The notes under the pieces were generated by a model. That model made no database searches and was not told where the DNA came from. It saw only the letters and a list, made by a program, of their open reading frames with translations. From assembly GCA_038255915.1 (NCBI GenBank), contig JBBSKY010000006.1, positions 1,221 to 65,220 on the forward strand: a stretch of 64,000 nucleotides of DNA, read 5' to 3'. This document shows positions 30,425 through 60,054 of the stretch, piece after piece. Source of the stretch: Acidimicrobiales bacterium (GTDB lineage: Bacteria > Actinomycetota > Acidimicrobiia > Acidimicrobiales > JAUJNH01). Positions within the stretch are counted from its first letter, which is position 1. Every line of letters begins with the position of its first letter. Both the position numbers and the translations under genes were made by a program.

Positions 30425-32845
30425 ATGGCTCAGATCGTGCGAAGCGCCTCCCGGCGAGTTGGCGCCAGGCTGGCCGCCGCCGCCCTGGTCAGCCTGCTGC
30501 TGGGCGTGGTGCCGCTCGTGGCCCGGTCGGCGCCGGCCGGCGCCTACCCCACGGTCAACGTGGAGGTGCGGGGCCACGGCTGGGGCCACGGCCGGGGCAT
30601 GGGGCAGTACGGGGCCATCGGCTACGCCACCATCTACGGCTGGTCGTCGGCCCAGATCCTCGACCACTTCTACGGCGGGACCCGGGCGGGCACCGTCGCC
30701 GAGGACCGGCCGGCCAACCCCCCCTTCAGCGTCGAGCTGTTCAAGGAGCGGGGCGAGTGGCCGTGGGTGACCGCGGCCAACGGGATCGACGTCACCCTGC
30801 CCGGCGGCGCGGTGCGGTCGGCGAACGCCTGGTACGCCGTGCCCGTCGGCGCGGCGACCTGGGACCTCTACGCCGGCACGACGTGCGCCGGCGCCGGGTC
30901 CAGCGCGGCGAGCGTCGCCAACCGGGTGGCCACGGTCACGGGCCAGGTCCGCTTCGCACCCCGGACCGACACCACGGTGCCGTTCGCCCCCAAGGAGGCG
31001 ATGACCCAGACGTGCCGCACCGGCGTCCACTACCGGGGCGACCTGCGGGCGGTGGAGTTCAACGGCGGCCCCGACACCATCAACGTCCTGCCGCTCGAGA
31101 GCTACCTGTGGGGCTCGGTCCCCCGCGAGCTGTCGGCCAGCTCACCGGTGGAGGCCCTGAAGGCCCAGGCCGTGGCCGCCCGGTCCTACGCCCTCAGCCG
31201 CACCCTGAACAACATCTTCGCCGGCTGCGACACCGCCTGCGGCCTCTACCAGGCCTACGAGGGCGCCGACATCGAGGCGGTGGCCTCCACCGGAGCGGTC
31301 ATGGCCACCGCCGGCGTGGTCCGGCGCACGACCGCCAACGGCAGGATCGCCCCCACCGAATACTCGAGCTCGACCGGCGGGTGGACGGTGGGCGGCACCT
31401 TCCCGGCCGTCGAGGACCTCGGCGACGTGGCCAGCCCCAGGCACGAGTGGAACGCGTCGGTCCCGGTGAGCGCCATCGAGGCGAGGTACGCCCGAGGCAC
31501 CCTCGAGTCGATCACGGTCGACCAGCGCGACGGAATCGGCGCCATGGGGGGTCGGGTGATCTCCATGACCCTGCGGTTCTCGGGCGGCGCCGCCACCATC
31601 TCGGGCGACGACTTCAAGAACGCCTTCATGGCCCAGGGGGTGTTCAGCCGGTGGTTCGAGATCATCGGGGGCGCGATCCAACCGCCCGCTTTCACGCCTC
31701 TCACGCCGTCACGCCTGCTCGACACCCGTCCCGGCGCCAGCACCCTCGACGGCCTGGGCGGCGTCTCCGGGGCCCTCGGCCCGGGCGCCACCCGCAACCT
31801 CCAGGTCACCGGTCGCGGCGGGGTGCCCGCCACCGGCGTCGGCGCCGTCGTGCTCAACATCACCGCCACCGGCCCCTCAGCCGGCGGGTACCTCACGGTG
31901 CACCCCGCCGGCCAGCCCCGCCCCAACGCCTCCAACCTCAACTTCGGTCGCGGCCAGACCATCCCCAACCTGGTCATCGCCAAGGTCGGCACCGGCGGCC
32001 AGGTCAGCATCTACAACGACACCGGCTCCACCCACCTCATCGCCGACGTCGCCGGGTGGTTCTCCGCGGGCCCCGGCTACGAGGCGCTGGACCCGGGCCG
32101 CCTGCTCGACACCCGGCCAGGCGCGTCCACCGTCGACGGCCTCTCCGCCAGCGGCGGCAGCCTCGGTCCCGGGGCCAGCCGCACCCTGCAGGTCACCGGG
32201 CGGGGCGGGGTGCCGGCCAGCGGGGTGGGCGCCGTCGTGCTCAACGTCACCGCCACCGGCGCCACCGCCGGCGGCTTCCTCACCGTGCACCCCACCGGCG
32301 CCACCCGGCCGAACGCCTCGAACCTCAACTTCGGGCCCGGTCAGACCGTCCCCAACCTGGTCATCGCCAAGGTGGGCCCCGAGGGCCAGGTCAGCATCTA
32401 CAACGACTCCGGCTCCACCCAGGTGATCGCGGATGTCGCCGGCTGGTTCCCGAGCACGTCCCCCTTCGCCTCCCTGGCGCCCGTCCGGCTGCTCGACAGC
32501 CGCTCCGGCGGCACCACCATCGACGGGACGGCCGCCGCCGGCGGGCCCGTGGGCGCCGGCGCCACCCGCATCCTCCAGGTCACCGGACGGGGCGGGGTGC
32601 CCGCCAGCGGCGTCGGCGCCGTCGTGCTCAACATCACCGCCACCGGCCCCTCAGCCGGCGGGTACCTCACCGTCCACCCCACCGGCCAGCCCCGGCCCAA
32701 CGCCTCGAACCTGAACTTCGGGCCGGGCCAGACCATCCCCAACCTGGTCGTCGCCAAGGTTGGCTCCGGCGGCCAGGTCAGCATCTACAACGACACCGGC
32801 TCCACCCAGGTCTTAGCCGACGTCGCCGGGTGGTTCCCCGCCTGA
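30425..32845 (+). CDS. Secreted SpoIID/LytB-domain protein fused to three copies of an unassigned 129-aa module
   Basis: ATG 30425. Signal peptide (AAAALVSLLLGVVPLVARSAPAGA). SpoIID-type motifs VEVRGHGWGHGRGMGQYGA, LESYLWGSVPRE, VKAQAVAARSYAL and EYSSSTGGWT. Then three repeats starting at FTPLTPSRLLDTR. Confidence 0.8.
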   Translation: MAQIVRSASRRVGARLAAAALVSLLLGVVPLVARSAPAGAYPTVNVEVRGHGWGHGRGMGQYGAIGYATIYGWSSAQILDHFYGGTRAGTVAEDRPANPPFSVELFKERGEWPWVTAANGIDVTLPGGAVRSANAWYAVPVGAATWDLYAGTTCAGAGSSAASVANRVATVTGQVRFAPRTDTTVPFAPKEAMTQTCRTGVHYRGDLRAVEFNGGPDTINVLPLESYLWGSVPRELSASSPVEALKAQAVAARSYALSRTLNNIFAGCDTACGLYQAYEGADIEAVASTGAVMATAGVVRRTTANGRIAPTEYSSSTGGWTVGGTFPAVEDLGDVASPRHEWNASVPVSAIEARYARGTLESITVDQRDGIGAMGGRVISMTLRFSGGAATISGDDFKNAFMAQGVFSRWFEIIGGAIQPPAFTPLTPSRLLDTRPGASTLDGLGGVSGALGPGATRNLQVTGRGGVPATGVGAVVLNITATGPSAGGYLTVHPAGQPRPNASNLNFGRGQTIPNLVIAKVGTGGQVSIYNDTGSTHLIADVAGWFSAGPGYEALDPGRLLDTRPGASTVDGLSASGGSLGPGASRTLQVTGRGGVPASGVGAVVLNVTATGATAGGFLTVHPTGATRPNASNLNFGPGQTVPNLVIAKVGPEGQVSIYNDSGSTQVIADVAGWFPSTSPFASLAPVRLLDSRSGGTTIDGTAAAGGPVGAGATRILQVTGRGGVPASGVGAVVLNITATGPSAGGYLTVHPTGQPRPNASNLNFGPGQTIPNLVVAKVGSGGQVSIYNDTGSTQVLADVAGWFPA
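31691..32842 (+). repeat. Intragenic tandem repeat with an exact 387-bp period, three copies
   Basis: Copies start at 31691, 32078 and 32465. Copies 1 and 3 share long identical runs, e.g. cgtcgtgctcaacatcaccgccaccggcccctcagccggcgggtacctcac. Confidence 0.9.
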
Positions 32846-32870
32846 GCCGGCCCGTTAGCCTCCTCGGCCC

Positions 32871-33287
32871 GTGCCCGTCCCCACCTCGGCCGTCGTCCGC
32901 GCCCTCGGCGAGGACGTCGTCCTCGAACCCCTCCCCGGGGCGCCGGACCTGACCGACGTCCGCGACGCCCTCGAGCGCCTGGCTCCGGTCGAGCTGGCCC
33001 CAGGCGACGTCCGGGCCGCACTCGCAGTGGTCGCCGAGCACGCCACCCTCAACCCCTACGCCGCCCTCACCAGCCGGCACCCGGCCATCGCCCGTCTGAA
33101 GCTGGTCACCCGCAAGCTGACGTTCTTCGTGGCCCACAGCCTGGCCGTGCAGGTCACCGACCTGGCCCACGCCCTGCTCGTCGCCGGCGCCGCCACCGCC
33201 GACCGGCTCGAGCTGCTGGAGGAGGAGAACGCCCGGCTCCGCCACGACCTCGACGAGCTGCGCCGGCGCCAGGGCACCACTTCATGA
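32871..33287 (+). CDS. Hypothetical protein with a C-terminal coiled-coil
   Basis: 138 aa. ...ADRLELLEEENARLRHDLDELRRRQ. Its stop overlaps the next GT4 start (ATGA). Codon usage resembles neighbouring genes. Confidence 0.45.
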   Translation: MPVPTSAVVRALGEDVVLEPLPGAPDLTDVRDALERLAPVELAPGDVRAALAVVAEHATLNPYAALTSRHPAIARLKLVTRKLTFFVAHSLAVQVTDLAHALLVAGAATADRLELLEEENARLRHDLDELRRRQGTTS

Positions 33288-34345
33288 GCGGCCCGGCCAT
33301 CCACCAGCTGGTCCCGTCGTTCGTGCCCGGCGACGCCATCGGCTCCCACGTCCGCCGGGTCCGGCGCCTGCTCCAGGACGCCGGCATCGAGTCCCGCACC
33401 TTCGTCAGCGCGGCCCACCCCGACCTCAAGAACGAGTGCGAGCCGTACCGGCGGGCGTCCGTCAAGGCCGACGACGTCCTGCTCTACCACCTGTCGTGCA
33501 GCGACTCGATGGCCGGGTGGCTGCTGTCCCAGCCCCAGCGCCTGCTCGTTGACTACCACAACATCACCGAGCCGAGGTGGTTCGACCGCTGGGCTCCCCT
33601 GGCCGCCCACGACATGCGGCTGGCCCGGCTCCAGATGGGCACCCTCGCCTCGCGGACCGAGGCGGCCGTGGCCCACTCGCGCTTCAGCGCCCAGGAGCTG
33701 GAGGCCCACGGCTACAACAACGTCGAGGTGGCGCCCCTGCTGTTCGCCCTGCCGGCCGGCGTCGACCGCACCGACCGGCCGGTGCCCGAGCGGGGGGCCC
33801 GCTGGCTGTTCGTCGGCCGCCTGGCCCCCAACAAGTGCCAGCAGGCCATCATCGGCGCCCTCGCCGCCGCCCGCCGCGGCCCCGACCCCGACGCCACCCT
33901 CACCCTGGTTGGCGGCCGCACCATCGGTCCCTTCGCCGACGAGCTGCAGCGGCTGGCCGGCGAGCTGGGCGTGGCCGCGGCCGTCCGCTTCGCCGACCAC
34001 GTGCCCGACGCCGAGCTCGAGGCCGCCTACCGCGACGCCGACGTGTTCGTGTGCCTCAGCCGCCACGAGGGCTTCGGGGCCCCGGTCATCGAGGCCATGG
34101 CCCGGGGCGTGCCCGTGGTGGCGCTGCGGGCCGCAGCGGTGCCCGAGACGGCAGGAGACGCCGCCCTGGTCCTGGACGACGACGACCCGGCCGTGGTGGC
34201 CGCCGCCGTCTGCCACCTGGCCACCCATTCCGACCTGGTGGCCGGCCTGCGCCGGGCCGGTCTGGAGCGGGCGGCCCAGCACGCCCCGGGCCGGGCCGGG
34301 CCGGCACTGCTGAGGCAGCTCCTCGACCTGGCCGGCGGTGGCTGA
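33284..34345 (+). CDS. GT4-family glycosyltransferase
   Basis: 353 aa. WLFVGRLAPNK and HEGFGAPVIEAMARGVPVVA, typical of the GT-B / GT4 family. Confidence 0.8.
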   Translation: MSGPAIHQLVPSFVPGDAIGSHVRRVRRLLQDAGIESRTFVSAAHPDLKNECEPYRRASVKADDVLLYHLSCSDSMAGWLLSQPQRLLVDYHNITEPRWFDRWAPLAAHDMRLARLQMGTLASRTEAAVAHSRFSAQELEAHGYNNVEVAPLLFALPAGVDRTDRPVPERGARWLFVGRLAPNKCQQAIIGALAAARRGPDPDATLTLVGGRTIGPFADELQRLAGELGVAAAVRFADHVPDAELEAAYRDADVFVCLSRHEGFGAPVIEAMARGVPVVALRAAAVPETAGDAALVLDDDDPAVVAAAVCHLATHSDLVAGLRRAGLERAAQHAPGRAGPALLRQLLDLAGGG

Positions 34346-35537
34346 GGCCACGGTCGCCCTCGTCACCCCCCGCTACGGCGACCGGGTGATCGGAGGGTCG
34401 GAGGCGGTCATGCGGGAGGCGGCCCACGGCCTGGCCGGCCGCGGCTTCGACGTCGAGGTGCTGACCACCTGCGCCTGGTCCCACTACACCTGGGCCAACG
34501 ACCTGCCCCCCGGGCCGAGCCGGGACGGGGCCGTGCGGCTGCGGCGCTTCCCCGTCGAGCACCCCCGCTCGCTCGCCACATGGGCCCAGATCGACGTCCG
34601 CATGAGCCAGGGCGAGCGGCTCACCCCCGAGGAGGAGCTGCGCTGGGCCAGCGGGCGCTTCCGGGTGCCGGCGCTGTACCGGCACCTGCTGGGCAGCACC
34701 TACGACGCCGTCGTCTTCTCTCCCTACCTGGCCTGGACCACCTTCGCCTGCGCCCCCGCGGTCGCCGAGCGGGCCGTCGTCATGCCCTGCTTCCACGACG
34801 AGCCGGCCGCCCGCCTCGTCCTCTTCGGCGGCCTGCTCGGCGGCTGCGCCGCGGCCTGGTTCCTGTCCGAGCCCGAGCGCGACCTGGCCGCCTCCCTCGG
34901 CCCGCTCGGCCCCCGCCCCACCGTGACCGGCGCCGGCGTCGCCGTGCCCCCGCGCCACGACCCTGCGCGTTTCCGGGCCCGCTACGGGGTGACCAGGCCC
35001 TTCGCCCTCTACGCCGGCCGCCGCGAGCTGCTGAAGGGGTGGGACCGCCTGGCGGAGGTGTACCGGGCCGCCCGCGCCCACCTCGACCTCGACCTCGACC
35101 TGGTCACCTTCGGGGCCAACGAGCTGCGCCACGACCTGCGCGACGCCCCCGGCATCATCGACCTCGGGGCGCTGCCGGCGGAGGACGTCCCCGACGCCTT
35201 CGCCGCCGCTGCGGTGTACGTGCAGCCCAGCCGCAACGAGAGCTTCTCCCGCACGGTCATGGAGGCGTGGCTGGCCGGCACCCCGGTCCTGGCCGACGCC
35301 GGCGGCGCGGTCGTGGCCTGGCACGTGCGCCGCAGCCAGGCCGGGATGCTCTACGGCGACGACCACGAGCTGGCGCGCTCCCTGCAGCTGATCGGCTCCC
35401 GCCCCGAGGAGGCCCGCAGCCTCGCCGCTCCGGGCCGGGCCTACGTGGTGGACAGCTACGCCTGGGACGCCGTGCTCGACCGGATGGCCGCCTCGCTGGC
35501 CGAGGTCACCGGGACGGCCCTCCGGAAGCCGGCATGA
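34338..35537 (+). CDS. GT4-family glycosyltransferase
   Basis: 399 aa. VALVTPRYGDRVIGGSEAV and NESFSRTVMEAWLAGTPVLA. 8-nt overlap with the upstream GT4 gene. Confidence 0.8.
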   Translation: MAEATVALVTPRYGDRVIGGSEAVMREAAHGLAGRGFDVEVLTTCAWSHYTWANDLPPGPSRDGAVRLRRFPVEHPRSLATWAQIDVRMSQGERLTPEEELRWASGRFRVPALYRHLLGSTYDAVVFSPYLAWTTFACAPAVAERAVVMPCFHDEPAARLVLFGGLLGGCAAAWFLSEPERDLAASLGPLGPRPTVTGAGVAVPPRHDPARFRARYGVTRPFALYAGRRELLKGWDRLAEVYRAARAHLDLDLDLVTFGANELRHDLRDAPGIIDLGALPAEDVPDAFAAAAVYVQPSRNESFSRTVMEAWLAGTPVLADAGGAVVAWHVRRSQAGMLYGDDHELARSLQLIGSRPEEARSLAAPGRAYVVDSYAWDAVLDRMAASLAEVTGTALRKPA

Positions 35538-36247
35538 CCGTCGGGCGGGTCGTGGTGGTCGGCCCCCACCCCCCGTGTCCCAGCGTGGCGGCCCGGCTGT
35601 GCGCCCGCCTCGGCGCCGAGCACGCCCGGGCCGGCGCCCGGGTGCTGGGCGTCGACCGGCTCCCCTCGGCCGCCGGGCGCACGGTTCCGCTGCGGGGCCT
35701 GGCCGGCGCCGCCGCAGTGGCCTGGCTGGCCCTGGGCGCCGACCGCCTCGAGCTGGTCCTGGTGCCCGGCCTGGTCCAGCGGGCCGGGGCCCGCTCGCCC
35801 GAGCACCGGCTCATCGCCGCCGCCTGGGGCGTCGCCCTCGGTATCCCCCGCTCGACCCGGATCCACGTGCTCGACCCGGTCGACGCCCTCCAGGTCGGCC
35901 TCCGCCCCGGGGCCACCGCCCCGCCCGGCCTCGAGATCATCCAGCACGTCCCCCGCATCGACCCGGGCCCCGTCGTCATCGGCGCCGACGGCCCGGCCGG
36001 CGGCGACCCGTGGGCGGCGTGGGCCGACGCCGTCACCCGACGGGCGGCGCTCGACCGGCGGGCCGGGCTCAGCCTGCGCCTGCCCACCCCGCCTCCTCCG
36101 TTCAGGAGCCGCAACCAGCGGGTCGTCGACCACCTCCGCGACTCCTACGGCCAGCCCGGCGAGGTCGCCGTGCAGGCCATCCTTCGGACCAAGCGCCTGG
36201 CCCGGGCGGCCCTGGCCGCCGCCCGCCGCCGGCGCGGGAGTGCGTGA
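35534..36247 (+). CDS. Hypothetical protein (no recognisable motif)
   Basis: ATG 35534 overlaps the upstream stop (ATGA). 237 aa starting MTVGRVVVVGPHPPCPS.... In operon position between GT4 and wzm. Confidence 0.45.
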   Translation: MTVGRVVVVGPHPPCPSVAARLCARLGAEHARAGARVLGVDRLPSAAGRTVPLRGLAGAAAVAWLALGADRLELVLVPGLVQRAGARSPEHRLIAAAWGVALGIPRSTRIHVLDPVDALQVGLRPGATAPPGLEIIQHVPRIDPGPVVIGADGPAGGDPWAAWADAVTRRAALDRRAGLSLRLPTPPPPFRSRNQRVVDHLRDSYGQPGEVAVQAILRTKRLARAALAAARRRRGSA

Positions 36248-36281
36248 GGCCCCCGACACCCGGCCGGTAGCCTGGGCCGAC

Positions 36282-37211
36282 ATGGCAGCCCCCGCCGTCG
36301 GTGATGTCGCCGACGACCCCGTCGACCTGCACGTCCGGGTCGTCACCCCCAAGCGGGGGGTCGTGCGCCGCCTGGCCGACGTCTACGCCGCCCGCGAGCT
36401 CCTCGTGGCGCTGGTGCGCAAGGAGCTGAAGGTCAAGTACAAGGACAGCACCCTCGGGTTCGTGTGGTCGATGCTGAACCCGGCGCTGTACCTGGTGGTC
36501 TTCTACCTCGTCTTCTCGCTGTTCCTGAAGAACGGCATCCCGCTGTTCCCGATCTGGCTCCTGTGCGGGCTCCTCGTGTGGAACTTCTTCTCCATCGTGC
36601 TCTCCAGCGCCACCAGCACCATGGTGGCCAACGCCGCCCTTGTGAAGAAGGTGTCGTTCCCCCGCGAGGTCCTGCCCCTGGCGGCCGTGGGCGCCGGCAT
36701 GGTCCACTTCTGCCTGCAGGCCCTGGTGATGCTGGGCGCCCTCCTCGCCTTCCGCCACCGCATCGACACCAGCTACCTGTGGCTGGTGCCGATCGCCCTG
36801 GTCTACCTGGTGCTGCTCAGCTCGGCCCTGGCCGTGGCCCTCTCGGCCATGAACGTCTACGTGCGCGACCTCCAGCACCTGCTCGAGCTGGTCCTGCTCG
36901 CCTGGTTCTGGATGACCCCGATCGTCTACCCCTACTTCCAGATCGTTCCCAACCTCATCGACCGCGGGTTGCCGTCATGGGCCTTCCTGGTCAACCCGAT
37001 CACGCCGGTGGTGCTGGTCTTCCAGCGCTGCCTCTACGGCACACCCGTGGTGAACCTGAGCGACCCGGAGCCGCTCGTCCTCCTCCCGGCGTGGGGCCCG
37101 GGGACGATGCTGCTCCCCCTGCTCGTCGGGATCCTGGCGTCCACCGCCCTCCTCGGCGCCGCCATCCACCTCTTCGGCCGGCTCGAGGCGAACTTCGCCG
37201 AGGAGATGTAG
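36282..37211 (+). CDS. wzm: ABC-2 type polysaccharide export permease
   Basis: ELLVALVRKELKVKYKDSTLGFVWSMLNPALYLVVF followed by six hydrophobic segments, the typical Wzm/TagG signature. An alternative start is GTG 36240. Confidence 0.85.
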   Translation: MAAPAVGDVADDPVDLHVRVVTPKRGVVRRLADVYAARELLVALVRKELKVKYKDSTLGFVWSMLNPALYLVVFYLVFSLFLKNGIPLFPIWLLCGLLVWNFFSIVLSSATSTMVANAALVKKVSFPREVLPLAAVGAGMVHFCLQALVMLGALLAFRHRIDTSYLWLVPIALVYLVLLSSALAVALSAMNVYVRDLQHLLELVLLAWFWMTPIVYPYFQIVPNLIDRGLPSWAFLVNPITPVVLVFQRCLYGTPVVNLSDPEPLVLLPAWGPGTMLLPLLVGILASTALLGAAIHLFGRLEANFAEEM

Positions 37212-37216
37212 CCCGA

Positions 37217-38452
37217 GTGACCGCCGCCATCGTCGTCGACGGCGTCACCAAGCGCTTCAAGATCGGTGGCGAGAAGTTCGACTCCCTCAAGGACCGGCTG
37301 ATCCACCTGGGCCGGGTGCAGCCCACCGAGTTCTGGGCGCTGAAGGGCATCGACCTCGAGATCGCCCAGGGCGAGAGCTTCGGCCTGCTCGGCCACAACG
37401 GATCGGGCAAGTCCACCCTCCTCAAGTGCGTGGCCGGGATCCTGCAGCCCACGGCCGGCCAGGTGCGCACCAAGGGCCGGATGTCGGCCCTGCTCGAGCT
37501 GGGCGCCGGCTTCCACCCCGACCTGACCGGGCGGGAGAACGTCGAGCTGAACGGCCTGCTCCTCGGCCTCGACCGCAAGAGCATCGCGGCCCGCTTCGAC
37601 GAGATCATCGACTTCGCCGGGCCCGAGGTGGCCAGCGCCATCGACCGCCAGGTGAAGTTCTACAGCTCGGGGATGTACGTGCGCCTGGGCTTCGCCGTGG
37701 CCGTCAGCATCGACCCTGAGATCCTCCTGGTCGACGAGGTGCTCTCGGTCGGTGACGAGGCCTTCCAGCGCAAGTGCATGAACCGGGTGAAGCAGCTGCA
37801 GGGCCAGGGCTGCACGATCGTGGTGGTGACCCACGCCGCCGACGTGGTGCGCCAGATCTGCGACCGGGCCGCCGTGCTCGACCACGGCGACCTGATCGTG
37901 GTCGGCGAGCCCCCCGTGGCCATCCGCACCTTCCGCGAGCACCTCTTCGCCACCGGCCAGGGCGACACCGTCGGCGACCTGCTCGACGAGCCGCCCGTCG
38001 TGGAGGGCGAGGAGGCGCCGCCCTCCAGCCGGCGCACGCTGAAGGTGAAGGTGCGCAAGGTCGACGTGCGCCACCCCGGCCAGCCCGACCGGGCCTACCT
38101 GCGCACCGGCGAGCCCCTCGAGGTGGCCATCACCCTGGAGACCTCCGAGCCGATCCCGGGTGTGAACGTCGGCCTCGGGATCCGCGACGTCGAGGGCCGG
38201 ATGGTTTGGACCTCCAACACCGAGCTGCTCGGCGTGCCCACCGGGCCCATCAAGGACCAGGCCACCATCACCTACCGCTTCGGCTCGGTGCCCCTCCTCG
38301 ACGGCGACTACGCCCTGCACGTCGGCGTCGTCAGCATCGAGGACGAGTCGGTCATCTACGATTGGATCGACTCGATGACCGGCTTCAACGTGCTCAGCAC
38401 GGCTCGGGTGTTCGGCCAGGTCGACCTGCCCGTGCACGTCGAGCGCACCTGA
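37217..38452 (+). CDS. wzt: ABC polysaccharide export ATPase with a C-terminal beta-rich extension (Wzt-type)
   Basis: GTG 37217. Walker A GHNGSGKSTLLK, signature YSSGMYVRLGFA, Walker B ILLVDEVLSVGD. An extra domain of about 140 aa (about 38024-38449) is laid out like the Wzt C-terminal glycan-cap-binding domain. Confidence 0.88.
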   Translation: MTAAIVVDGVTKRFKIGGEKFDSLKDRLIHLGRVQPTEFWALKGIDLEIAQGESFGLLGHNGSGKSTLLKCVAGILQPTAGQVRTKGRMSALLELGAGFHPDLTGRENVELNGLLLGLDRKSIAARFDEIIDFAGPEVASAIDRQVKFYSSGMYVRLGFAVAVSIDPEILLVDEVLSVGDEAFQRKCMNRVKQLQGQGCTIVVVTHAADVVRQICDRAAVLDHGDLIVVGEPPVAIRTFREHLFATGQGDTVGDLLDEPPVVEGEEAPPSSRRTLKVKVRKVDVRHPGQPDRAYLRTGEPLEVAITLETSEPIPGVNVGLGIRDVEGRMVWTSNTELLGVPTGPIKDQATITYRFGSVPLLDGDYALHVGVVSIEDESVIYDWIDSMTGFNVLSTARVFGQVDLPVHVERT

Positions 38453-38454
38453 GC

Positions 38455-39144
38455 GTGACCAACCCGTCGGACGACGCGCTGGCCGGTGCCATCGACTACA
38501 AGCGCCTCTACGACTACCGCTTCAAAGACGTCGACCAGGCGGGCCGGGTCGCGGTCTGGGGGGTCCTCGGACTGTGGCTGTGGGAGCGGATGGGCCGGCC
38601 CCAGCGGGTCCTCGACCCCGCCGCCGGTCGCTTCGAGTTCCTGAACGCCATCGGTGCCGGCGAGCGATGGGCCGTCGACCAGGTCGACACCGGGTTCGCC
38701 CGCCACCCCACCATCCGCCTCGAGGTCGGTGACGCCCAGCAGGTGGTGCTCCCGGCCGACCACTTCGACGGCGTCTTCGTCAGCCACTTCCTCGAGCACC
38801 TCCAGAGCCAGCAGCACGTCGCCCTGTTCCTACGCCACCTCCTCACCGCCACCGCCCCCGGCGGCACCATCGCCATCCTCGGGCCCAACTTCCGCTACTG
38901 CGCCTCGCAGTACTTCGACTGCGCCGACCACGTGGTCCCCCTGTCCCACGTCTCGGTGGCCGAGCACCTCCACGCCGCCGGGTACGAGGTGACCGAGGTC
39001 ATCCCCCGCTTCCTCCCGTTCTCCTTCCGCTCGGCCCTCCCGCCCTCCTCCACCCTCACCGCCGCCTACCTCCGCCTCACCCCGGCGTGGCGGCTGCTGG
39101 GCAAGCAGCTGCTGATCCTGGCCCGCAAGCCCGACCCTTCCTAG
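38455..39144 (+). CDS. Class I SAM-dependent methyltransferase
   Basis: GTG 38455, 2 nt after the wzt stop. ...RVLDPAAGRFEFL..., FDGVFVSHFLEHL and APGGTIAILGPN. Confidence 0.7.
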   Translation: MTNPSDDALAGAIDYKRLYDYRFKDVDQAGRVAVWGVLGLWLWERMGRPQRVLDPAAGRFEFLNAIGAGERWAVDQVDTGFARHPTIRLEVGDAQQVVLPADHFDGVFVSHFLEHLQSQQHVALFLRHLLTATAPGGTIAILGPNFRYCASQYFDCADHVVPLSHVSVAEHLHAAGYEVTEVIPRFLPFSFRSALPPSSTLTAAYLRLTPAWRLLGKQLLILARKPDPS

Positions 39145-39154
39145 GCTGAACGCC

Positions 39155-41085: not shown

Positions 41086-41106
41086 GGACCGGGGGCTGAG
41101 GACCGG
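41073..41106. repeat. 14-bp direct tandem repeat, about 2.4 copies, spanning the SDR stop codon
   Basis: gaccgggggctgag at 41073 and 41087, and a partial gaccgg at 41101. Confidence 0.85.
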
Positions 41107-48373: not shown

Positions 48374-48449
48374 GTCGGGGTTGGACCCTACCGCTGCGGT
48401 CGAGGCCGCTAGCCTCCGGCGCCGTGCTGTGGACCTCGAGACCGTCCTG

Positions 48450-50126: not shown

Positions 50127-50128
50127 GG

Positions 50129-50923: not shown

Positions 50924-53285
50924 CCGGGTCCGGGAAGGGATCGCGCACCACGCCGTCGGCCAGCGCGTCGAGGGTCGGCAGCAGGGCACCGGCCAGGTGG
51001 GCGTAGGTCCAGCGGGCCGCGGTGGACCGGCCAGCGGCGGCGAGGGCGGCCCGGCGCCCGGGATCGGCCAGGAGGCGGCCGAGCACGTCGGCCAGCCCGA
51101 GGGCGCCGATGGAGGGGGGGACGCGGACGATGGCCTCGGCCGGCAGCTCGACTGCAGTGCTCACGCTGGTCAGGCAGGGCACCCCGGCGGCCAGCAGCTC
51201 GCGCACGGCACCCGAGCTCTCGCCCGAGGTGCCGCGGCGCAGCACCACCCCCACGCTGGCCCGACCCACCCACCGCCACCAGGTGGCGTCGTCCACCGGG
51301 CCCACCACCTCGACGGCGTCCTCGAGGCCACGCTCGCGGGCCAGCGCCAGGATCCACCGCCGCCGGCTCTCATGCGCCGGGCCGACGAAGGCGAGGCGGG
51401 CCGGCACCTCCTGGCGCAGCAGCGCCAACGCCTCGACCAGGGCGTCAGGGGCCTTCGACTCGTCGAGGTGGCCCGGGGCCAGGAGGAGCGGCGGGTCGTC
51501 CGGCTCGGGGGCGGCGAGGGTGGCCGGGTCGGGGTAGGCGAGCGGGAGGACGACCGTGGGCGGCACGGCCTGGCCGGGCTGCTGGTCGAGGGCCACCAGC
51601 CGGCGGGCCAGGTCGGAGGTGACGATGCAGCCGCGGGCCCAGCGCACCACCTGGCCCGTGAGGCCCACGCCCCCACGGCTCAGCACGCCCGGGTCGCGCC
51701 AGGTGGCCTCGTCCAGACGGAGGTGGCGTCCGGGGTGGAGCGCCTCCTCCCCCTCGGCCACCCACTCACCCGACAGTCCGAGGAGCCTGGCCCGCTCGGT
51801 GCGGATGGCCGGGAGGCGGGCCTCGTGCAGCCACACGATCCCGCCGTGGCGGCGCACGGCCTCGACCGTGGGCCAGTGGTGATCGGAGTTGCCCACCACC
51901 GACACCAGGTGGTCGAAGGACTCCGGGGCCAGGCTGCGGCCCAGCGCCCGCAGCGGCGCCACCCGCACCCCGGCGGGCACGTGGTGCAGGCGGCGGGCCT
52001 CGGGGTCCAGGGCGACGACCTCGGCGTGGCGGGCCAGCTCGGGCAGCAGGCGCCCCGCCACCACGGCGATGCCGGACGAGGACGGGGGCAGCGGCGTGGC
52101 CAGGGTGATGCGCCGGGTGCGAGGCGGCCGCCGCCGACGGACCGGATCGGCCGGCGCCGGCACCCGGGCCAGGGCGTCGAGCACCCGCTGGGCGGTGGCG
52201 TCCCAGGTGAACCGGGTGAGCCGCTCGGCCCCCCGGGCCCTGATGGCCGTCCGCAGGCCGTGGTCCACCAGGCCGGCGGTGATGCGCTCGGCCATCGCCG
52301 CAGGGTCATCAGGGTCGAAGGTGGAGGCAGGGAGGCCCAGGATCTCAGGCAGAGCGCTGCGGTCGGAGGTGAGGGCCGGGCAGCCGCAGGCCAGCGCCTC
52401 CAGGACGGGGAGGCCGAGGCCCTCATAGGACGAGGGGAACACGAACAGCGCCGCGTCTCGGTACAGCTCGCGCAGGGCCAGGTCGCTCACGTAGCCCGTG
52501 AGCACCACCTCGTCCTCGGCCAGGCCAGACCCGGCGGCCAGCACCCGCAGGTGGTTGAGGGCGGGGGGGCTCAGGTGGCAGGCCACCACCAGCTGGTGGG
52601 CGGCCCGCACCGGCTCGGGCACCAGGGCCCAGGCCCGGACCAGGCCGTCGAGGTTCTTGCGCCCGTCGCCGCCGCCCACGCTGAGGACCGGGCGGCGGAC
52701 GAGCCCCGGCACCAGGGCGTGGGCCTGGCTGGCCTCGGAGGCCGGGCGGGGGGTGAAGAACGAGCTGACCCCGCCCAGCACCGACACCACCCGCCCCCCG
52801 GCCAGGCCGAGGTGGTCGAGGGCGTCGCGCCGGCTGTTCTCCGAGATGGCCAGCACGAGGTCGGCCTGGCGGTACAGCTCGAGGCGCTGGCGGTAGCGGG
52901 CCCACACCCCACCGGTGAAGTAGCGCTCGCGCAGCACCAGGGGGATCAGGTCGAACAGCACCGCCACGACGTGGGCGCCGCAGGCCCGGACGTGCGGCGG
53001 CAGCACCGAGTCGGGCGGCACCTCCTCCATGGGCGACAGGATGAGGTGGGCCACCTCGCCCTCGAGGCGGTCGTAGGCCCGGGGCGACGCCCACCCGAGG
53101 CCAGGGTGGGCCAGGAGCTCGGGTGGCAGGGAGCGGGGGAACGGCAGCGACGGGTTGAGGGTGAGCAGCGCCACCTCCGCGCCGCCCCGGTGCAGGGCGG
53201 TGGCCAGCTCGACGGCGTAGCGGGCGATGCCCCGGTCGGCGTGGGCCGCCGACTGGGTGCACTGCAGGTCGAGGACGAGCCGCAT
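50907..53285 (-). CDS. Tandem double-GT4 glycosyltransferase (paralogue of 45177-47516)
   Basis: ATG 53285 (MRLVLDLQCTQSAAHADRGIARY). YEGLGLPVLEALACGCPALTS. The second half has TSGESSGAVRELLAAGVPCLTS. The 236 upstream codons of the track ORF are R/P-rich and overlap the next gene. Confidence 0.8.
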   Translation of the reverse strand: MRLVLDLQCTQSAAHADRGIARYAVELATALHRGGAEVALLTLNPSLPFPRSLPPELLAHPGLGWASPRAYDRLEGEVAHLILSPMEEVPPDSVLPPHVRACGAHVVAVLFDLIPLVLRERYFTGGVWARYRQRLELYRQADLVLAISENSRRDALDHLGLAGGRVVSVLGGVSSFFTPRPASEASQAHALVPGLVRRPVLSVGGGDGRKNLDGLVRAWALVPEPVRAAHQLVVACHLSPPALNHLRVLAAGSGLAEDEVVLTGYVSDLALRELYRDAALFVFPSSYEGLGLPVLEALACGCPALTSDRSALPEILGLPASTFDPDDPAAMAERITAGLVDHGLRTAIRARGAERLTRFTWDATAQRVLDALARVPAPADPVRRRRPPRTRRITLATPLPPSSSGIAVVAGRLLPELARHAEVVALDPEARRLHHVPAGVRVAPLRALGRSLAPESFDHLVSVVGNSDHHWPTVEAVRRHGGIVWLHEARLPAIRTERARLLGLSGEWVAEGEEALHPGRHLRLDEATWRDPGVLSRGGVGLTGQVVRWARGCIVTSDLARRLVALDQQPGQAVPPTVVLPLAYPDPATLAAPEPDDPPLLLAPGHLDESKAPDALVEALALLRQEVPARLAFVGPAHESRRRWILALARERGLEDAVEVVGPVDDATWWRWVGRASVGVVLRRGTSGESSGAVRELLAAGVPCLTSVSTAVELPAEAIVRVPPSIGALGLADVLGRLLADPGRRAALAAAGRSTAARWTYAHLAGALLPTLDALADGVVRDPFPDPVSPSG

Positions 53286-53296
53286 CAGGGCCCGGC

Positions 53297-54391
53297 TCAG
53301 GCCGGGCGGGCCCGCAGCAGCACCACGCCGGGGACCTCGGCGTCGACCAGGTCGACGGCTGGGCACGGCACCCAGGTGACGGCGTCCTGCGGGCGGCAGA
53401 AGCTGAGGTCGTCGAGGGCCCAGCCCTCGAGCAACCGCTCCAGCCCGGCGGCGTCGTAGACCCGCTGGAGCTCGTCGATCGACGCCCGGCCGTACGGCGC
53501 GGTCAGCACCAGCAGCCCGTCGGGGGCCAGCCAGCCCTTCAGCTGGGTGAGGGCATCGCGGTCGGCGTCGGGCCGGCCGCCGTCGAGCGCGTAGGACCCG
53601 AGGCCCAGGTGCTCGATGGTGGACAGCGAGATGACGGCGCCGAGCGGCTCTGAGGGGCCCTCCCAGTCGTGGACCCCGAGGGTGACCACCTCGAGGTTGG
53701 GGTGGCTGAAGGGGTAGCCACGGGGCTCGACGGCGTAGGTGGGGCGACCGGAGCTGGCCAGGGAGAGCGACAGCGTGCTCTCTGCGGCCCCGAGGTCGAG
53801 GACCGGCCGGTCCGGGCTGACCGTGGCCAGGGCGGCGTAGACGTAGGGCAGCTCGACGATCCGCTCGTTCACCGCGCCCACCTCGGCGCCGCCGGCGAAG
53901 AGCCGGACGACCACGGGGTGGTTCACCCACAGGCCCACCTCGGACGGGGGGCTGCGGTGGGAGCCGAGCCAGTTCGCCAGGTCGGCCAGCCACGGCTCGA
54001 GCTCGGCCAGCGGGGTCCGCTCCAGCTGCCGCTCGATCGCCGCTCCGAGGTGGGGCTCGGCCCGCAGGTGGGCGATGGCCCGCTCGGCGCTGGTCACGTC
54101 GACCTGCTGCACGAGGCGGACCTCGAGGCGCTCGGCCACCTGCTGGAGGAACACGGTGGCCTCGGCCAGCGACACGACCGTCGGCTCGATCTGCTCCACC
54201 GACTCGTGGAGGGCGGCCCGGTGGTCGTCGAGCGCCTCGACGACCCCGCCCACCACTCCGGCGGCCACGTCATTCGGCAGGTCCCGCCGCAGGTCGGCGC
54301 CCACGTTGGTGACGTGGGTGAACAGGTCGCCGAAGCGCTTGTCGACAAAGGCGGTGAGCGGCCGGGCCGCCGCCTTCAGGGGGTCAGCCAT
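53297..54391 (-). CDS. Long helical N-terminal domain fused to a class I methyltransferase-like domain
   Basis: 364 aa. An N-terminal helical region of about 150 aa, then NERIVELPYVYAAL, VLDLGAAESTLS (motif I-like), VISLSTIEHLG and LAPDGLLVLTAPYG. Confidence 0.6.
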   Translation of the reverse strand: MADPLKAAARPLTAFVDKRFGDLFTHVTNVGADLRRDLPNDVAAGVVGGVVEALDDHRAALHESVEQIEPTVVSLAEATVFLQQVAERLEVRLVQQVDVTSAERAIAHLRAEPHLGAAIERQLERTPLAELEPWLADLANWLGSHRSPPSEVGLWVNHPVVVRLFAGGAEVGAVNERIVELPYVYAALATVSPDRPVLDLGAAESTLSLSLASSGRPTYAVEPRGYPFSHPNLEVVTLGVHDWEGPSEPLGAVISLSTIEHLGLGSYALDGGRPDADRDALTQLKGWLAPDGLLVLTAPYGRASIDELQRVYDAAGLERLLEGWALDDLSFCRPQDAVTWVPCPAVDLVDAEVPGVVLLRARPA

Positions 54392-54464
54392 GGAGCGGCG
54401 CAGCCGGGGTCACAGCTGCGAAACCCTAGCCATCGGCCACGAGGCGACCAGGTCTCGGAACTAG

Positions 54465-56418
<1,954 letters not shown>

Positions 56419-56431
<13 letters not shown>

Positions 56432-57123
56432 GCATCGAGGGGGTCGAGGGGATCGGCGAGGTGCGCCCCGGCGACGTCCTGGCCCAGCTCATCAGGGTCG
56501 CGGCGGGCGACCGGCTCCGGGCCGGCGACGTCGTGGTGGTCACCCAGAAGGTGGTGAGCAAGGCCGAGGGGCGCCTGGCGGCCGTCGACCCTGACGACCC
56601 GAGGGGCCACCAGCCGCTGGTCGAGGCCGAGGCCGTGCGGGTGCTGCGCCGCCGGGGCGACCTGACCATGACCGAGACCCGGCACGGCTTCGTGTGCGCC
56701 AACTCGGGGGTGGACCTGTCGAACGTCGAGCGGGGTTGGGCCGCCCTGCTGCCGGTCGACCCCGACCGGTCGGCCCGCCGCATCCGCGACGGCCTGCGGG
56801 CCCGCCTCGGCCTCGAGGTCGCCGTGGTGGTGAGCGACACCTTCGGCCGGGCGTGGAGGCGAGGGGCCACCGACGTCGCCATCGGCATCGCCGGGCTGGC
56901 CGGCGTGGTCGACCTCCGGGGCACCTCCGACGCCCTCGGCCGTCCACTCCAGGTCACCGAGGTGTGCATCGCCGACGAGGTCGCCGCCGCCGCCGAGCTG
57001 GTGATGGGCAAGGCCCGTTCGGTGCCGGTCGCCATCGTCCGCGGGCTCGACCCGGCGTTCCTGCGGGAGGGCTCGGTCCACGACGAGGTCGTCCGGCCCC
57101 ACGCCGAGGACCTCTTCCGCTGA
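56419..57123 (+). CDS. cofE: Coenzyme F420:L-glutamate ligase, single-domain form
   Basis: 234 aa. VVVVTQKVVSKAEGR, THGFVCANSGVDLSN, VVVSDTFGRAWRRG and ADEVAAAAELVMGK. No C-terminal nitroreductase-like domain follows. Confidence 0.85.
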
Positions 57124-57258
57124 CACCGCTGGGCAACGGGTGTCGCGGGCGTGAACGCCGCCTGACCGCCCGGCCGTCAAGGCGGCGTGTAGCCTGACGG
57201 CCAAAGCGGCGGCGGGAGCGGCCCGTCCAGCTGTGGACGACCCGCTGGAGGACCAGCT

Positions 57259-60054
57259 ATGAAGACCACTCGGACCATTCGCATCGTGCTGGCCGTGCTG
57301 GCCGTGACCTTCGCCATCGGTGCCTCGACGTCCGCCGAGGCGGAAGACGCCGGCCCCTCCTGGCTGAGGGGGGGCAAGGCCGACGGCCTCGCTACCTCCT
57401 CGCTGGCCAAGGCGGCGGCCGGCGAGCCCCAGAGTCCTCGCAGCGACGTGAAGGTCGAGGGCGGCAAGGCCCAGGTCGAGCTGTCCGGCACCGACCCGAC
57501 CGCCCTGGCCGCTGCAGTCGAGGCCACGGGCGGCACCGTCGACGTGGCCACACCGGGCAGGGTGCGGGCCACCGTTCCCACCGACGAGCTCACCGACCTC
57601 GCCAACGACCCAGCTGTCGGGCGGGTGGCGCCGGTGCGCCGCTACTCGCCGGCTGTCAACTCCGAGGGTGTGGCCGCCATCGAGGCGGATGACTGGATCG
57701 GCGGCGGCAGGACCGGAGCTGGCGTGAAGGTGGCCGTCGTCGACCTGGGCTTCAAGGGCTACGAGACCCGTCTGGCCACCGAGCTGCCCGGCACCGTGGT
57801 CGTCCCGAACAACCTCGGCACCTGCAACCAGGCGGCCATCAACGGAGCCAACGCCGATGACCACGGTACGGCGGTCGCCGAGATCGTGCGCGACGTCGCT
57901 CCCAACGCCGAGCTCTACCTCATCTGCGTCACCGGCGTCGGCGACCTGATCCCGGTCAAGCAGTACCTCAAGGACCAGAACATCAACATCGCCAACATCT
58001 CCCTGGTCAACTTCTTCGCCCGGGGCGACGGGCAGGGCCCGGACAACAGCGACGCCGGCGCCGTGCGCAGGAGCCGGGTCGAGGACGGTGTGCTGTGGGT
58101 GGCCGCCGCCGGCAACCACGGCGACAAGCACTACAACTTCCAGACCTCGGGTCGCCAGGGCCGCTACTGCGGGGGCACCGCCACCGACCTGGCCAACAGC
58201 GTCCAGGTGATCGACAACGACCAGTTCTTCCGGGTCACCGTGCCCGCCGGCAAGGCCTTCGCCGCCACCCTGCGCTGGGATGCGTGGCCGGTGACGTCTG
58301 AGGACTTCGACCTGTTCCTGGTCGACGCCCCGAACCTCACCAGCGCCACCGTTCTGGCCCAGTCCGTCCTGGCCCAGGACGGCGACGCCGCCTCGGAGCC
58401 CCTCGAGGGCATCTTCTACGAGAACACCACGAACAACGCCAAGACCACCTACGTGGCCATCGCCCGGTGCACCGGCGGGGCCAACCCCCGCTTCGACCTG
58501 TTCTTCGACAAGGATCCCGAGGTGGGCCTGGAGCGGTCCAACGCCTCCGGGAGCGTCGCCGAGCCCGCCACCTCGCCCTACGCCATGGCCGTCGGCGCCT
58601 CCTGCTTCTCGCAGCAGACGATCCAGCCCTACAGCAGCCAGGGCCCGACCATCGACGGCCGGGTCAAGCCCGACATCACCGGCCCTGACGCAAATGCGAC
58701 CGCCACCTTCGGTGCTTCAGGCGGCTGCACCAACGGGTTCAACGGCACGTCGGCGGCCAGCCCGCACCTCGCCGGTGCCGCCGCCCTCCTCCTCGGCTCC
58801 ACCCCCAGCCTGGACCCGGCCCAGCTGCAGACCCAGCTGGAGAGCCGGACTGACGAGCGTGGCCCCCAGGGCCACGACAACGTCTTCGGCGCCGGTTTCC
58901 TGAAGCTCGGCCCTGTCAACACCCCGACGCCGCCCGCGGGGCAGGACTTCACCCCGGCCGCGACCCCGACCCGGATCCTCGACACCCGGGGCGCCATCGG
59001 CGGTCACAACGGGAAGCTGAATGCCAACGAGACGTTCGACCTCACCATCCCCGGCCCCGTGCCCTCTGACGCCACCGCCGTGGTGCTCAACGTGACCGTG
59101 GCCGAGCCCGAGGGCCCGCCTGCGGGCCTGGCCGAGGGCTTCGCCACCGTCTTCCCGACGGGGGCGGCGCAGCCCAACTCCAGCAACCTGAACTTCAAGC
59201 CCGGAGCGCTTCCCTCCAACCAGGTGGTGGCGGCCATCGGCACCGGCGACAGGGTCAGCTTCTTCACCACCAACAAGGCCCACTTCGTCGTCGACGTCAA
59301 CGGCTGGTTCAACCCGTCGTCGACCGGCGGCTTCACCGGCATCACCCCGGCCCGGGCCCTCGACACCCGAGGCGGCAGCGGCCTGGCCGCCGGCACCGAG
59401 CGGGAGGTCATCCTGGCCGGTCCCCTCGGCGTCCCCGGCGACGCCACGGCCGTGGCCCTCAACGTCACCGCGGTGAACCCCACCGGCTTCGGGTTCGTCA
59501 CCGTCTACCCGACATCGGCCACCAGCCCGGCCGACCGGCCCACCGCCGCCAACCTCACCTACAGCACCGCCCAGACCGTCCCGAACGCGGTGACGGCCAA
59601 GATCGGTGACCTCGGGAAGGTCCGGTTCTTCTCGAGCGTGGCCACCGACCTGCTCATCGACGTCGTCGGCTACTACAAGGCGGGCTCCGGGGCCTCCTAT
59701 GTGGCCCTCCCCGCCCCCCGTCGTGACCTCGACACCCGCACCGGGAACGGCCTGCGGCCCGGTCTGGTGGGCACGGGCCCCTTCAACGTCCAGGTCGGCT
59801 TCCTTGACGGCCTCCCCGGCAACGCCGTCGCCGCCCAGCTGAACGTGACCGTCAACCAGCCCACCGGCGGCTTCGTCACCGTCTACCCGTCGGGTCAGGT
59901 CCAGCCCAACACCTCCAGCCTGAACTTCACCGAGGGTCAGACCATCCCCAACTCGGTGCTGACAAAGCTCGGCGATGGCGGCAGGATCACCCTGCGCAAC
60001 GCCCAGGGCACCGCCCAACTCATCTCTGACGTGAGCGGCTACTACGTGCCGTAG
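57259..60054 (+). CDS. Secreted S8 (subtilisin-family) serine peptidase fused to three copies of the unassigned ~125-aa module
   Basis: GGAGGA Shine-Dalgarno sequence. Signal peptide IVLAVLAVTFAIGASTSAEA. Catalytic D (VAVVDLGF), H (DDHGTAVAE) and S (GTSAASPHLAGAAALL). Module copies begin at FTPAATPTRILDTR, FTGITPARALDTR and YVALPAPRRDLDTR. Confidence 0.85.
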   Translation: MKTTRTIRIVLAVLAVTFAIGASTSAEAEDAGPSWLRGGKADGLATSSLAKAAAGEPQSPRSDVKVEGGKAQVELSGTDPTALAAAVEATGGTVDVATPGRVRATVPTDELTDLANDPAVGRVAPVRRYSPAVNSEGVAAIEADDWIGGGRTGAGVKVAVVDLGFKGYETRLATELPGTVVVPNNLGTCNQAAINGANADDHGTAVAEIVRDVAPNAELYLICVTGVGDLIPVKQYLKDQNINIANISLVNFFARGDGQGPDNSDAGAVRRSRVEDGVLWVAAAGNHGDKHYNFQTSGRQGRYCGGTATDLANSVQVIDNDQFFRVTVPAGKAFAATLRWDAWPVTSEDFDLFLVDAPNLTSATVLAQSVLAQDGDAASEPLEGIFYENTTNNAKTTYVAIARCTGGANPRFDLFFDKDPEVGLERSNASGSVAEPATSPYAMAVGASCFSQQTIQPYSSQGPTIDGRVKPDITGPDANATATFGASGGCTNGFNGTSAASPHLAGAAALLLGSTPSLDPAQLQTQLESRTDERGPQGHDNVFGAGFLKLGPVNTPTPPAGQDFTPAATPTRILDTRGAIGGHNGKLNANETFDLTIPGPVPSDATAVVLNVTVAEPEGPPAGLAEGFATVFPTGAAQPNSSNLNFKPGALPSNQVVAAIGTGDRVSFFTTNKAHFVVDVNGWFNPSSTGGFTGITPARALDTRGGSGLAAGTEREVILAGPLGVPGDATAVALNVTAVNPTGFGFVTVYPTSATSPADRPTAANLTYSTAQTVPNAVTAKIGDLGKVRFFSSVATDLLIDVVGYYKAGSGASYVALPAPRRDLDTRTGNGLRPGLVGTGPFNVQVGFLDGLPGNAVAAQLNVTVNQPTGGFVTVYPSGQVQPNTSSLNFTEGQTIPNSVLTKLGDGGRITLRNAQGTAQLISDVSGYYVP

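Follow-up and report, generated by a model that had tools for sequence, protein, structure and literature searches.

A large unannotated family of triplet modules on secreted proteins, seen from a cell-envelope glycan locus of an Acidimicrobiales bacterium

Three genes in the 64,000 nucleotides analysed here (the window; positions 1,221 to 65,220 of contig JBBSKY010000006.1 in assembly GCA_038255915.1, from an Acidimicrobiales bacterium) encode secreted proteins that share one C-terminal module, and all three lie within a long cell-envelope glycan locus. This arrangement raises the question of what the module is and whether it binds the polymer made beside it, as a first-pass annotation of the sequence alone had proposed. 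The module was found to belong to a very large, widespread domain family, so far unannotated, with a distinctive obligate-triplet architecture. The triplet is, as modelled, one rigid all-beta body, and there is about an even chance that it is a single-chain, three-lobed, lectin-like unit of binding or retention that positions secreted enzymes on a carbohydrate surface. The proposed tie between module and glycan island stood only for the sub-family of one stand-alone protein and did not hold for the module family.

The module and its copies in threes

The three proteins, termed P_A, P_B and P_C, have signal-peptide-like N-termini and each ends in three tandem modules (open reading frame (ORF) translation). 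Translations and a profile scan bear out the nine copies of one module of about 125 residues that had been noticed at the outset, and a profile made from these nine copies (alignment A1) gives exactly nine matches when all six frames of the window are scanned, a result that is circular for those copies and shows that the window holds no further ones. Modules of different proteins are related far beyond chance (pairwise BLASTP, E = 2e-18 and 1e-21, 34% identity). The consensus derived in the first-pass annotation is accurate: positions invariant in A1 include P6, R8, D11, R13, T58, L83, D119 and G122, the first four of which make up a PxRxxD[TS]R motif, and larger alignments show hardly any variation in the LNxT, SNLN and PN motifs. 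The gene starts it gave also agree with the proteins on record (806, 452 and 931 residues). Copies within P_A are 74-79% identical to one another, which suggests recent duplication or gene conversion, while those of P_B and P_C are much more diverged (34-45% identical to the first copy of P_A, and 34% between a P_B copy and a P_C copy). The isoelectric point (pI) of the triplet is 9.7 in P_A, 4.05 in P_B, which is strongly acidic, and 5.7 in P_C. All copies across the family have, with few or no exceptions, an N-x-T tripeptide (LN[VIL]T), for example LNIT at 31850-31865 in the first copy of P_A. It is formally an N-glycosylation sequon and sits in a predicted beta-strand of the AlphaFold2 model, where a structural role is more likely.

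The heads that precede the modules are those originally stated. P_A carries a SpoIID/LytB domain (TIGR02669, 1.9e-32, 113.3 bits against a cut-off of 83.3; PF08486, 3e-17, 63.5 against 23), P_B carries none, and P_C is assigned by profile match to Peptidase S8 (PF00082, 1.2e-26, 94.2 bits against a cut-off of 21.8). The module itself has no Pfam or NCBIfam match at E<=1 in any of the three proteins, and the same scans return no SLH, CWB2 (PF04122), LysM, CW_binding_1 (choline-binding), PG_binding or SH3b domain; C1q (PF00386) and TNF (PF00229) profiles likewise have no match among the three proteins. A profile search of PDB sequences yields no relative, the best match (E 0.39) being to unrelated chains. 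The tables of homologues carry precomputed assignments made with a later Pfam release than the one in the local hmmscan library (they include PF26549, PF27111, PF27542 and others, of which PF27111 and PF27542 had no match in the local scan), and even there Pfam domains are assigned to the heads of module proteins and none to the module region. The statement that the module matches no known family has therefore survived the library check against Pfam, NCBIfam and PDB, and within the limits of the literature collection searched no description of it was found. Membership of the SLH, CWB2, LysM or choline-binding families is ruled out by the absent profile matches together with the all-beta fold.

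HMMER, run exhaustively over 1.84 billion representative proteins, gives a family of 39,635 clusters (50% identity) at E<=1e-3, and of 14,086 at E<=1e-30. Named sources are mostly Acidimicrobiia/Ilumatobacteraceae, with others in Streptomyces, Kitasatospora, Humibacillus, Oryzobacter, Terrabacter, Amycolatopsis, Nanopelagicaceae, Chloroflexota, Dormibacteria and Rudaea. Among the carriers are cultured organisms, including Streptomyces spp., Humibacillus xanthopallidus, Oryzobacter terrae, Terrabacter ginsenosidimutans and Rudaea cellulosilytica. Triplets of Rudaea cellulosilytica DSM 22992 and Rudaea sp. 3F27F6 (loci L008, L010, L018 and L019) are 54-59% identical to that of P_A, which suggests horizontal transfer from Actinomycetota into a diderm.

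Copy number follows a rule of three. Exactly three complete copies are present in 350 of the 384 full-length-type proteins, most proteins that score five or six copies are 3+3 arrays with a gap of about 90-110 residues that holds a degenerate copy, and one protein is 3+3+3. Short matches that appear to have two copies begin mid-module, which points to truncated gene calls. These copy-number lists comprise the top-scoring matches and are hence biased towards many copies.

The view that interchangeable heads sit on a fixed triple repeat holds across the family. Enzyme heads comprise CAP, G1/A4 and S8 peptidases, C39, PD40/DPP-IV, CHAP, M23, Amidase_2, SpoIID, polysaccharide deacetylase, GH114 and GDSL, and further heads are a Rv2525c-like domain, Excalibur, NIDO, Kelch, fn3, TIG and several unnamed domains. 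The block of modules is N-terminal (112 proteins) and C-terminal (129 proteins) at similar frequency. A signal-peptide-like N-terminus was recognised in 236 of 323 proteins; none of the 384 module proteins has a sortase signal and a single one has a C-terminal hydrophobic tail. This pattern of heads and tails is what a general non-catalytic address or binding unit would be expected to produce, as the first-pass annotation had argued.

The P_A block (384 residues, with an alignment of 101 sequences) was modelled by AlphaFold2 as an all-beta structure with eight strands per copy (mean predicted local distance difference test (pLDDT) 97.6, predicted template modelling score (pTM) 0.94), and a single module was modelled with a pLDDT of 95.9. 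Since a pTM of 0.94 over 384 residues implies confident placement of the copies relative to one another, the three copies are predicted to form one body and not three loosely linked domains. Foldseek comparison of a single module with the PDB gives matches that are weak but agree with one another, at a best E of 1.4e-3, with template modelling (TM) scores of about 0.40-0.56 and 8-18% identity. The top solved neighbours are the Bdellovibrio Bd2133 fibre tip (TM 0.53), BclA (0.42-0.47), the N-terminal lectin of BC2L-C (BC2L-C-Nt, 0.42-0.44), F-BclA and the C1q head (0.40), at E values of 1e-3 to 3e-2, and all of them are homotrimers. Trimers of the TNF-like kind usually act as receptors or lectins, and in some of them a monosaccharide is bound in a pocket between protomers (PMC10769870). 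After these homotrimeric jelly rolls rank, weakly, carbohydrate-binding modules (CBMs) of the CBM4, CBM6, CBM22 and CBM36 types, and further neighbours are modules that bind porphyran or hyaluronan and the fibre tips of predators or phages. The top match of the whole triplet is the 'triple jelly roll' STIV A223 (4IND; E 1.3e-5, TM only 0.24), and in a library of predicted viral structures it matches proteins of about 400 residues (TM 0.44-0.45), among them one that bears the name 'C1q domain-containing'. From the pTM, the copy-number rule and the oligomeric state of the fold neighbours we infer a pseudo-threefold packing, in which the triplet would be a single-chain pseudo-trimer of TNF/C1q-like jelly rolls.

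Neighbourhoods of module genes and the P_B orthogroup

Co-localisation of the module with the glycan genes had been put forward as a sign that it binds their polymer, with a test of co-occurrence across Actinobacteria as one way to check it. The window's GT4 and GT2 glycosyltransferases and its Wzm, Wzt, Gmd and ManC proteins were used in single-sequence phmmer searches of two samples of module loci, the first of 80 loci from species-representative genomes (1.27 Mb, scanned for the module with a 10-sequence alignment) and the second of 68 metagenome loci. Positive controls gave 2-8 matches in each of six loci. At 50-60% divergence phmmer recovers about half of the Pfam-annotated glycosyltransferases, so the counts are lower bounds, and whole clusters are still visible. 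In the first sample any glycan-type match was present in 8 of the 80 loci and a cluster (at least three matches) in two of them (L015 and L043); the 16 glycan-type matches among about 1,150 genes amount to background, glycosyltransferases being expected at about 1-2% of genes genome-wide. The metagenome sample has 8 loci with any match, and 2 of 70 loci have a cluster, one of these two being the near-identical island L130. Module genes adjoin Wzm/Wzt in L043, L078, L108 and L115. All-against-all clustering of the flanking ORFs of the 80 loci revealed no conserved neighbour gene, the largest group being generic ABC transporters (9 loci); a small number of Streptomyces loci are syntenic. Taken over the whole family, co-localisation is not borne out, or is weakly positive at most. 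At least two module ORFs occur in about 19 of the 80 loci, and because nearby paralogues are this common, three module genes in 30 kb are unremarkable by themselves.

The stand-alone protein P_B behaves differently. Its orthologues (about 450 residues, 51-79% identity) lie among glycan-assembly genes in all six contigs with an intact copy, a further contig, L090, being too short for its context to be judged. In L083 these genes are a GT2, three GT4, Polysacc_synt_3, S8, SpoIID and Wzm, with a protein of 656 residues and about nine transmembrane segments encoded immediately upstream; in L084 they are two GT2, a GT4 and a methyltransferase, with a protein of 647 residues and about nine transmembrane segments upstream. 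A double GT4 of 780 residues lies downstream in L085 and L089, and Wzt (95% identical) and a methyltransferase lie upstream in L086. The membrane proteins of about 650 residues before the P_B orthologues of L083 and L084 are analogous to the one in the window, with no detectable homology to it. In the orthologue alignment two cysteines near the N-terminus are invariant, and each of the three copies has a signature specific to its position. Many members (P0389-P0398; alignment A5, columns ~60-90) have a low-complexity (GYG)n insert between these two cysteines, and C-terminal tails rich in Thr occur in P0387 and P0388. When metagenomes were scanned with P_B alone no relative was returned, and the orthologue alignment added only two orthologues. 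Since the P_B orthogroup alone recurs in the locus, P_B is the best candidate for binding the product of that locus.

P_A and P_C are linked to the locus through their heads and positions and not through the module. L083 is a distant relative of the same locus type, in which the order FAD-oxidase, GT4, SpoIID, Wzm is shared (flavin adenine dinucleotide, FAD; Wzm 61% identical), and P_A is syntenic there with a module-less SpoIID gene that adjoins Wzm. The P_C orthologue in L088 is 63% identical, has three modules and follows Gmd-CofD-CofE. The S8 and SpoIID proteins of L083, both without the module, share another unannotated C-terminal tail (70% identical), a repeat of about 41 residues in 5-6 copies with the motif 'GYWLVASDGGIFAYGDAxFLGSTGG..LNxPVVGMAxTPxG', which has no Pfam match and is probably a beta-propeller. 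Exo-enzymes of one place would then carry one tail, with the type of tail swapped between lineages, which fits exchangeable targeting modules.

What the triplet may bind

The reading given about even odds above would run as follows. The module would be an extracellular eight-stranded jelly roll whose working unit is three tandem copies folded into one compact three-lobed body, a single-chain counterpart of the TNF/C1q-like homotrimers. This non-catalytic body would serve binding or retention, borne at either end by secreted enzymes or standing alone; in the window it would be joined to a SpoIID peptidoglycan-remodelling enzyme and an S8 protease and would form the whole of P_B. The most likely class of ligand would be a cell-envelope carbohydrate, probably of the producer's own envelope, and it would not be, family-wide, the product of an adjacent glycan locus. 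P_B would be a free copy of the triplet that works with the Wzm/Wzt-exported glycan. Binding as such and the ligand, like the pseudo-threefold packing, are what we infer here from architecture, model and fold neighbours.

Several known systems offer partial precedents. SLH trimers bind pyruvylated secondary cell-wall polymers (PMC6081394). SLH (PF00395) resembles the triplet in that three tandem copies make one unit, pseudo-trimeric in SLH and proposed to be so in the triplet, which is a non-covalent tail at either end of varied exoproteins with no sortase signal, but its copies are helical and of about 55 residues with a TRAE-type motif, as against about 125 residues and all-beta, with no sequence relation, and the triplet, a predicted wall binder, lacks a family-wide linkage to a polymer locus. 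CWB2 triplets of the Clostridioides difficile Cwp proteins, whose ligand is a wall polysaccharide, are also obligate and are combined with variable functional domains in a large set of paralogous exoproteins; they differ in their alpha/beta fold, their length of about 90 residues and their occurrence in other phyla, and their Pfam profile has no match here. The TNF/C1q-like trimers (BC2L-C-Nt, BclA, F-BclA, Bdellovibrio MAT fibre tips and C1q heads) are jelly-roll beta-sandwiches of 120-140 residues like the module. However, they are homotrimers of separate chains, whereas the three copies here are fused, and the similarity is weak. Jelly-roll CBMs (CBM4, CBM6, CBM22 and CBM36) are likewise beta-sandwich, non-catalytic appendages of secreted enzymes, but they follow no three-copy rule, do not pack into one rigid body and bear no sequence relation to the module. 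STIV A223 has several jelly rolls on one chain, as the triplet has, but the arrangements do not superpose and A223 is a capsid vertex protein.

A number of observations weigh against an envelope-binding triplet. The family also occurs in cultured Rudaea, a diderm (Gram-negative, gammaproteobacterial) genus, and cell-wall-active heads are a minority, at about 10% of the annotated heads in one table of homologues. Triplets are not consistently basic, the family median pI being 6.15 in a range from 4 to 10. The rule of multiples of three has a few exceptions (four copies in P0248 and P0279, five contiguous copies in P0244). Matches of fold are weak and are accompanied by no C1q or TNF sequence signal. 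Module genes can also be lost from the locus: the island of L130 is near-identical to that of the window (Wzt 97%, GT2 88%, methyltransferase-like protein 82%) and retains only a P_B remnant of about 70 residues, and the P_A site of L087 holds a SpoIID fragment and the last ~22 module residues. P_B thus recurs in the Wzm/Wzt-type locus but can be dispensed with there. Electrostatic binding of an anionic polymer was also considered, and it is unsupported given the median pI and its wide range.

A more far-reaching version of the same idea is possible but tentative. In it the triplet would be a natural single-chain TNF/C1q-like pseudo-trimer and the main device for non-covalent display at the cell surface in Acidimicrobiia, many other Actinomycetota, Chloroflexota and Dormibacteria, equivalent in function to SLH and CWB2 and overlooked by annotation in spite of its ~40,000 sequence clusters. 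Three inter-lobe grooves, lined by the PxRxxDTR, LNxT, SNLN, PN and DxxG[WY] motifs, would bind envelope glycan, and P_B would be the dedicated partner of the Wzm/Wzt-exported polymer.

The first-pass annotation had read the triplet as a dedicated wall anchor for the secondary wall glycopolymer of this very locus, comparable to SLH and its pyruvylated polymer, with all three proteins displayed on it. This now appears unlikely. Three module genes do lie within 30 kb of the Wzm/Wzt/Gmd locus, P_B orthologues are found amid glycan-assembly genes wherever the copy is intact, the P_C orthologue keeps its place by Gmd-CofD-CofE, a few other module genes abut Wzm/Wzt, and SLH is a precedent (PMC6081394). 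However, there is no clear family-wide enrichment, the density of glycosyltransferases is near background and no neighbour is conserved. The module's polar core motifs are conserved from one phylum to another, whereas polymers of this kind vary between strains, and a dedicated anchor of this kind would also have to account for the family in Gram-negative Rudaea and for a charge that spreads from pI 9.7 to 4.05 over P_A, P_B and P_C. Moreover, the syntenic SpoIID and S8 proteins of L083 bear another tail, and P_B is lost in L130 and P_A truncated in L087 from islands that are otherwise intact.

If the ligand were not of the producer, the triplet might be an outward-directed CBM or resemble a fibre-tip adhesin and carry its enzymes to polysaccharides in the environment, to other cells or to their substrates. 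Fold neighbours such as CBM4, CBM6, CBM22, CBM36, the porphyran- and hyaluronan-binding modules and the fibre tips would suit this function, as would the many heads with no wall substrate (proteases, CAP, GH114, GDSL esterase, Kelch/PD40 propellers) and the presence of the module in the diderm Rudaea cellulosilytica. It is quite unlikely, however, in view of the same module on autolysin-type heads (SpoIID, CHAP, M23 and Amidase_2), whose substrate is the producer's own wall, of the stand-alone P_B within an envelope-glycan locus, and of putative binding-motif residues that are highly conserved across very different heads.

The module could also bind nothing and be a structural, secretion or folding-helper domain (compare the pre-peptidase C-terminal domains) or a stable spacer. 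It occurs on many secreted hydrolases with no ligand known, its conserved residues could form a purely structural network, and its fold matches are weak. Against this, stand-alone triplets form a conserved orthogroup with position-specific conservation in each copy, the block is N- or C-terminal about equally often, unlike a pro-domain, and 3+3 and 3+3+3 arrays are typical of binders that build avidity, which makes a role of this sort very unlikely.

The make-up of the locus (Gmd, SDR reductase, Wzm/Wzt with Wzt_C, methyltransferases, multi-domain glycosyltransferases and polytopic proteins; SDR, short-chain dehydrogenase/reductase) presumably resembles that of the slg clusters of Geobacillus and Aneurinibacillus. 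A protein-glycosylation (S-layer-glycan-like) cluster with module proteins, especially P_B, as acceptors or surface-layer proteins is nevertheless highly improbable, for although this make-up, the position of P_B directly after a protein of about nine transmembrane segments in three lineages and the invariant N-x-T of every module would suit it, neither polytopic protein matches Wzy_C/PglL, PMT or another oligosaccharyltransferase, the N-x-T lies inside a predicted strand and is more simply explained as structural, most of the family is encoded far from loci of this kind, and to our knowledge N-glycosylation is not established in Actinomycetota.

If the triplet is a unit of surface retention or glycan binding, it would explain the placement of a large share of the secreted enzymes in Acidimicrobiia and in related, little-studied soil and freshwater Actinomycetota, it would be the third fold among triple-repeat wall anchors after SLH and CWB2, and it would provide a ready-made affinity tag or probe for the envelopes of carriers. 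A single chain that mimics a TNF/C1q trimer would be of structural interest, such single-chain trimers being otherwise engineered. With the family annotated, tens of thousands of proteins would lose a region now labelled 'hypothetical', and the cultured carriers make the hypothesis directly testable.

The glycan locus of the window

The island around the module genes is an ABC-transporter-dependent (Wzm/Wzt type) glycan assembly locus. Library scans of the window ORFs confirm the glycan island recognised at the outset and enlarge its extent, since glycan genes span from about 8.3 kb through the window end; P_A, which had been placed possibly at the edge, lies inside with glycan genes on both sides. 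The island contains multiple GT4 and GT2 genes, Wzm, Wzt with Wzt_C, methyltransferases, Gmd, a mannose-1-P guanylyltransferase-like gene and PMM. The Wzm-type permease matches ABC2_membrane (3.1e-16), Wzt has ABC_tran plus a Wzt_C domain (4.7e-18) and Gmd scores 429.5 with TIGR01472 against a cut-off of 415. The gene that had been called rmd has a weak SDR match only and that call is unconfirmed. Base composition is 68-79% GC across 2-kb windows of the 64 kb.

Table 1. Positions of module genes and neighbouring genes in the window, and of related regions in other contigs (named by contig)
Feature	Position	Strand	Remarks
FAD amine-oxidase-like gene	27641-29122	-	upstream of P_A; same order in L083
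GT4	29152-30426	-	directly upstream of P_A; same order in L083
P_A	30425-32845	+	signal peptide, SpoIID/LytB head, three modules; 806 residues
P_A triple module block	31691-32839	+	copies 31691-32074, 32078-32461, 32465-32839
Glycan-locus core	33284-41085	+	GT4, GT4, Wzm, Wzt, methyltransferase, GT2, SDR reductase-like; order shared with relative L087
Wzm	36240-37211	+	
Wzt with Wzt_C	~37220-38452	+	
580-residue protein, ~9 transmembrane segments	41791-43533	+	directly upstream of P_B; without family match
P_B	43735-45093	+	signal peptide, Cys pair, three modules only; 452 residues, pI 4.05
P_B triple module block	43885-45051	+	copies 43885-44265, 44284-44664, 44680-45051
Double GT4	45177-47516	-	downstream of P_B
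281-residue protein	47528-48373	-	
565-residue polytopic membrane protein	48429-50126	+	
GT2	between the 565-residue membrane protein and the second double GT4	+	
Double GT4	50907-53285	-	
364-residue methyltransferase-like protein	53297-54391	-	
Gmd	54477-55451	+	
CofD + CofE	55448-57123	+	F420 genes of the conserved core; flanked by Gmd and P_C
CofD	55448-56431	+	PF01933 2.7e-41
P_C	57259-60054	+	signal peptide, S8 subtilase head, three modules; 931 residues
P_C triple module block	58948-60051	+	copies 58948-59325, 59332-59694, 59698-60051
Module-gene loss region	L130:2530-3729		P_B remnant of ~70 residues; neighbouring genes intact
P_A remnant	L087:1917-2532		neighbouring GT, Wzm and Wzt genes intact
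S8/SpoIID tail proteins	L083:14347-18481		JGI 3300063017, contig of 181 kb

Further upstream of P_A than the genes of Table 1 are an SDR gene, a GT2 of 1365 residues, DUF5719, a GT-C-like membrane protein, a GT2, PMM and a PGI-like gene. A methyltransferase gene lies on the minus strand between the SDR reductase-like gene and the membrane protein of 580 residues, and P_C is followed by the mannose-1-P guanylyltransferase-like gene and then by more GT4 genes. The long minus-strand ORF at 55196-56311 corresponds to no real gene, since CofD is encoded there on the plus strand. The two polytopic proteins of the locus (about 8-9 transmembrane segments; 580 and 565 residues) have no Pfam or NCBIfam match. 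The proteins of 281 and 364 residues have in common an N-terminal, probably helical region (phmmer 4.5e-10), and this shared region, together with Wzt_C on the ABC ATPase, resembles a chain-terminator and cap-recognition system of the WbdD type.

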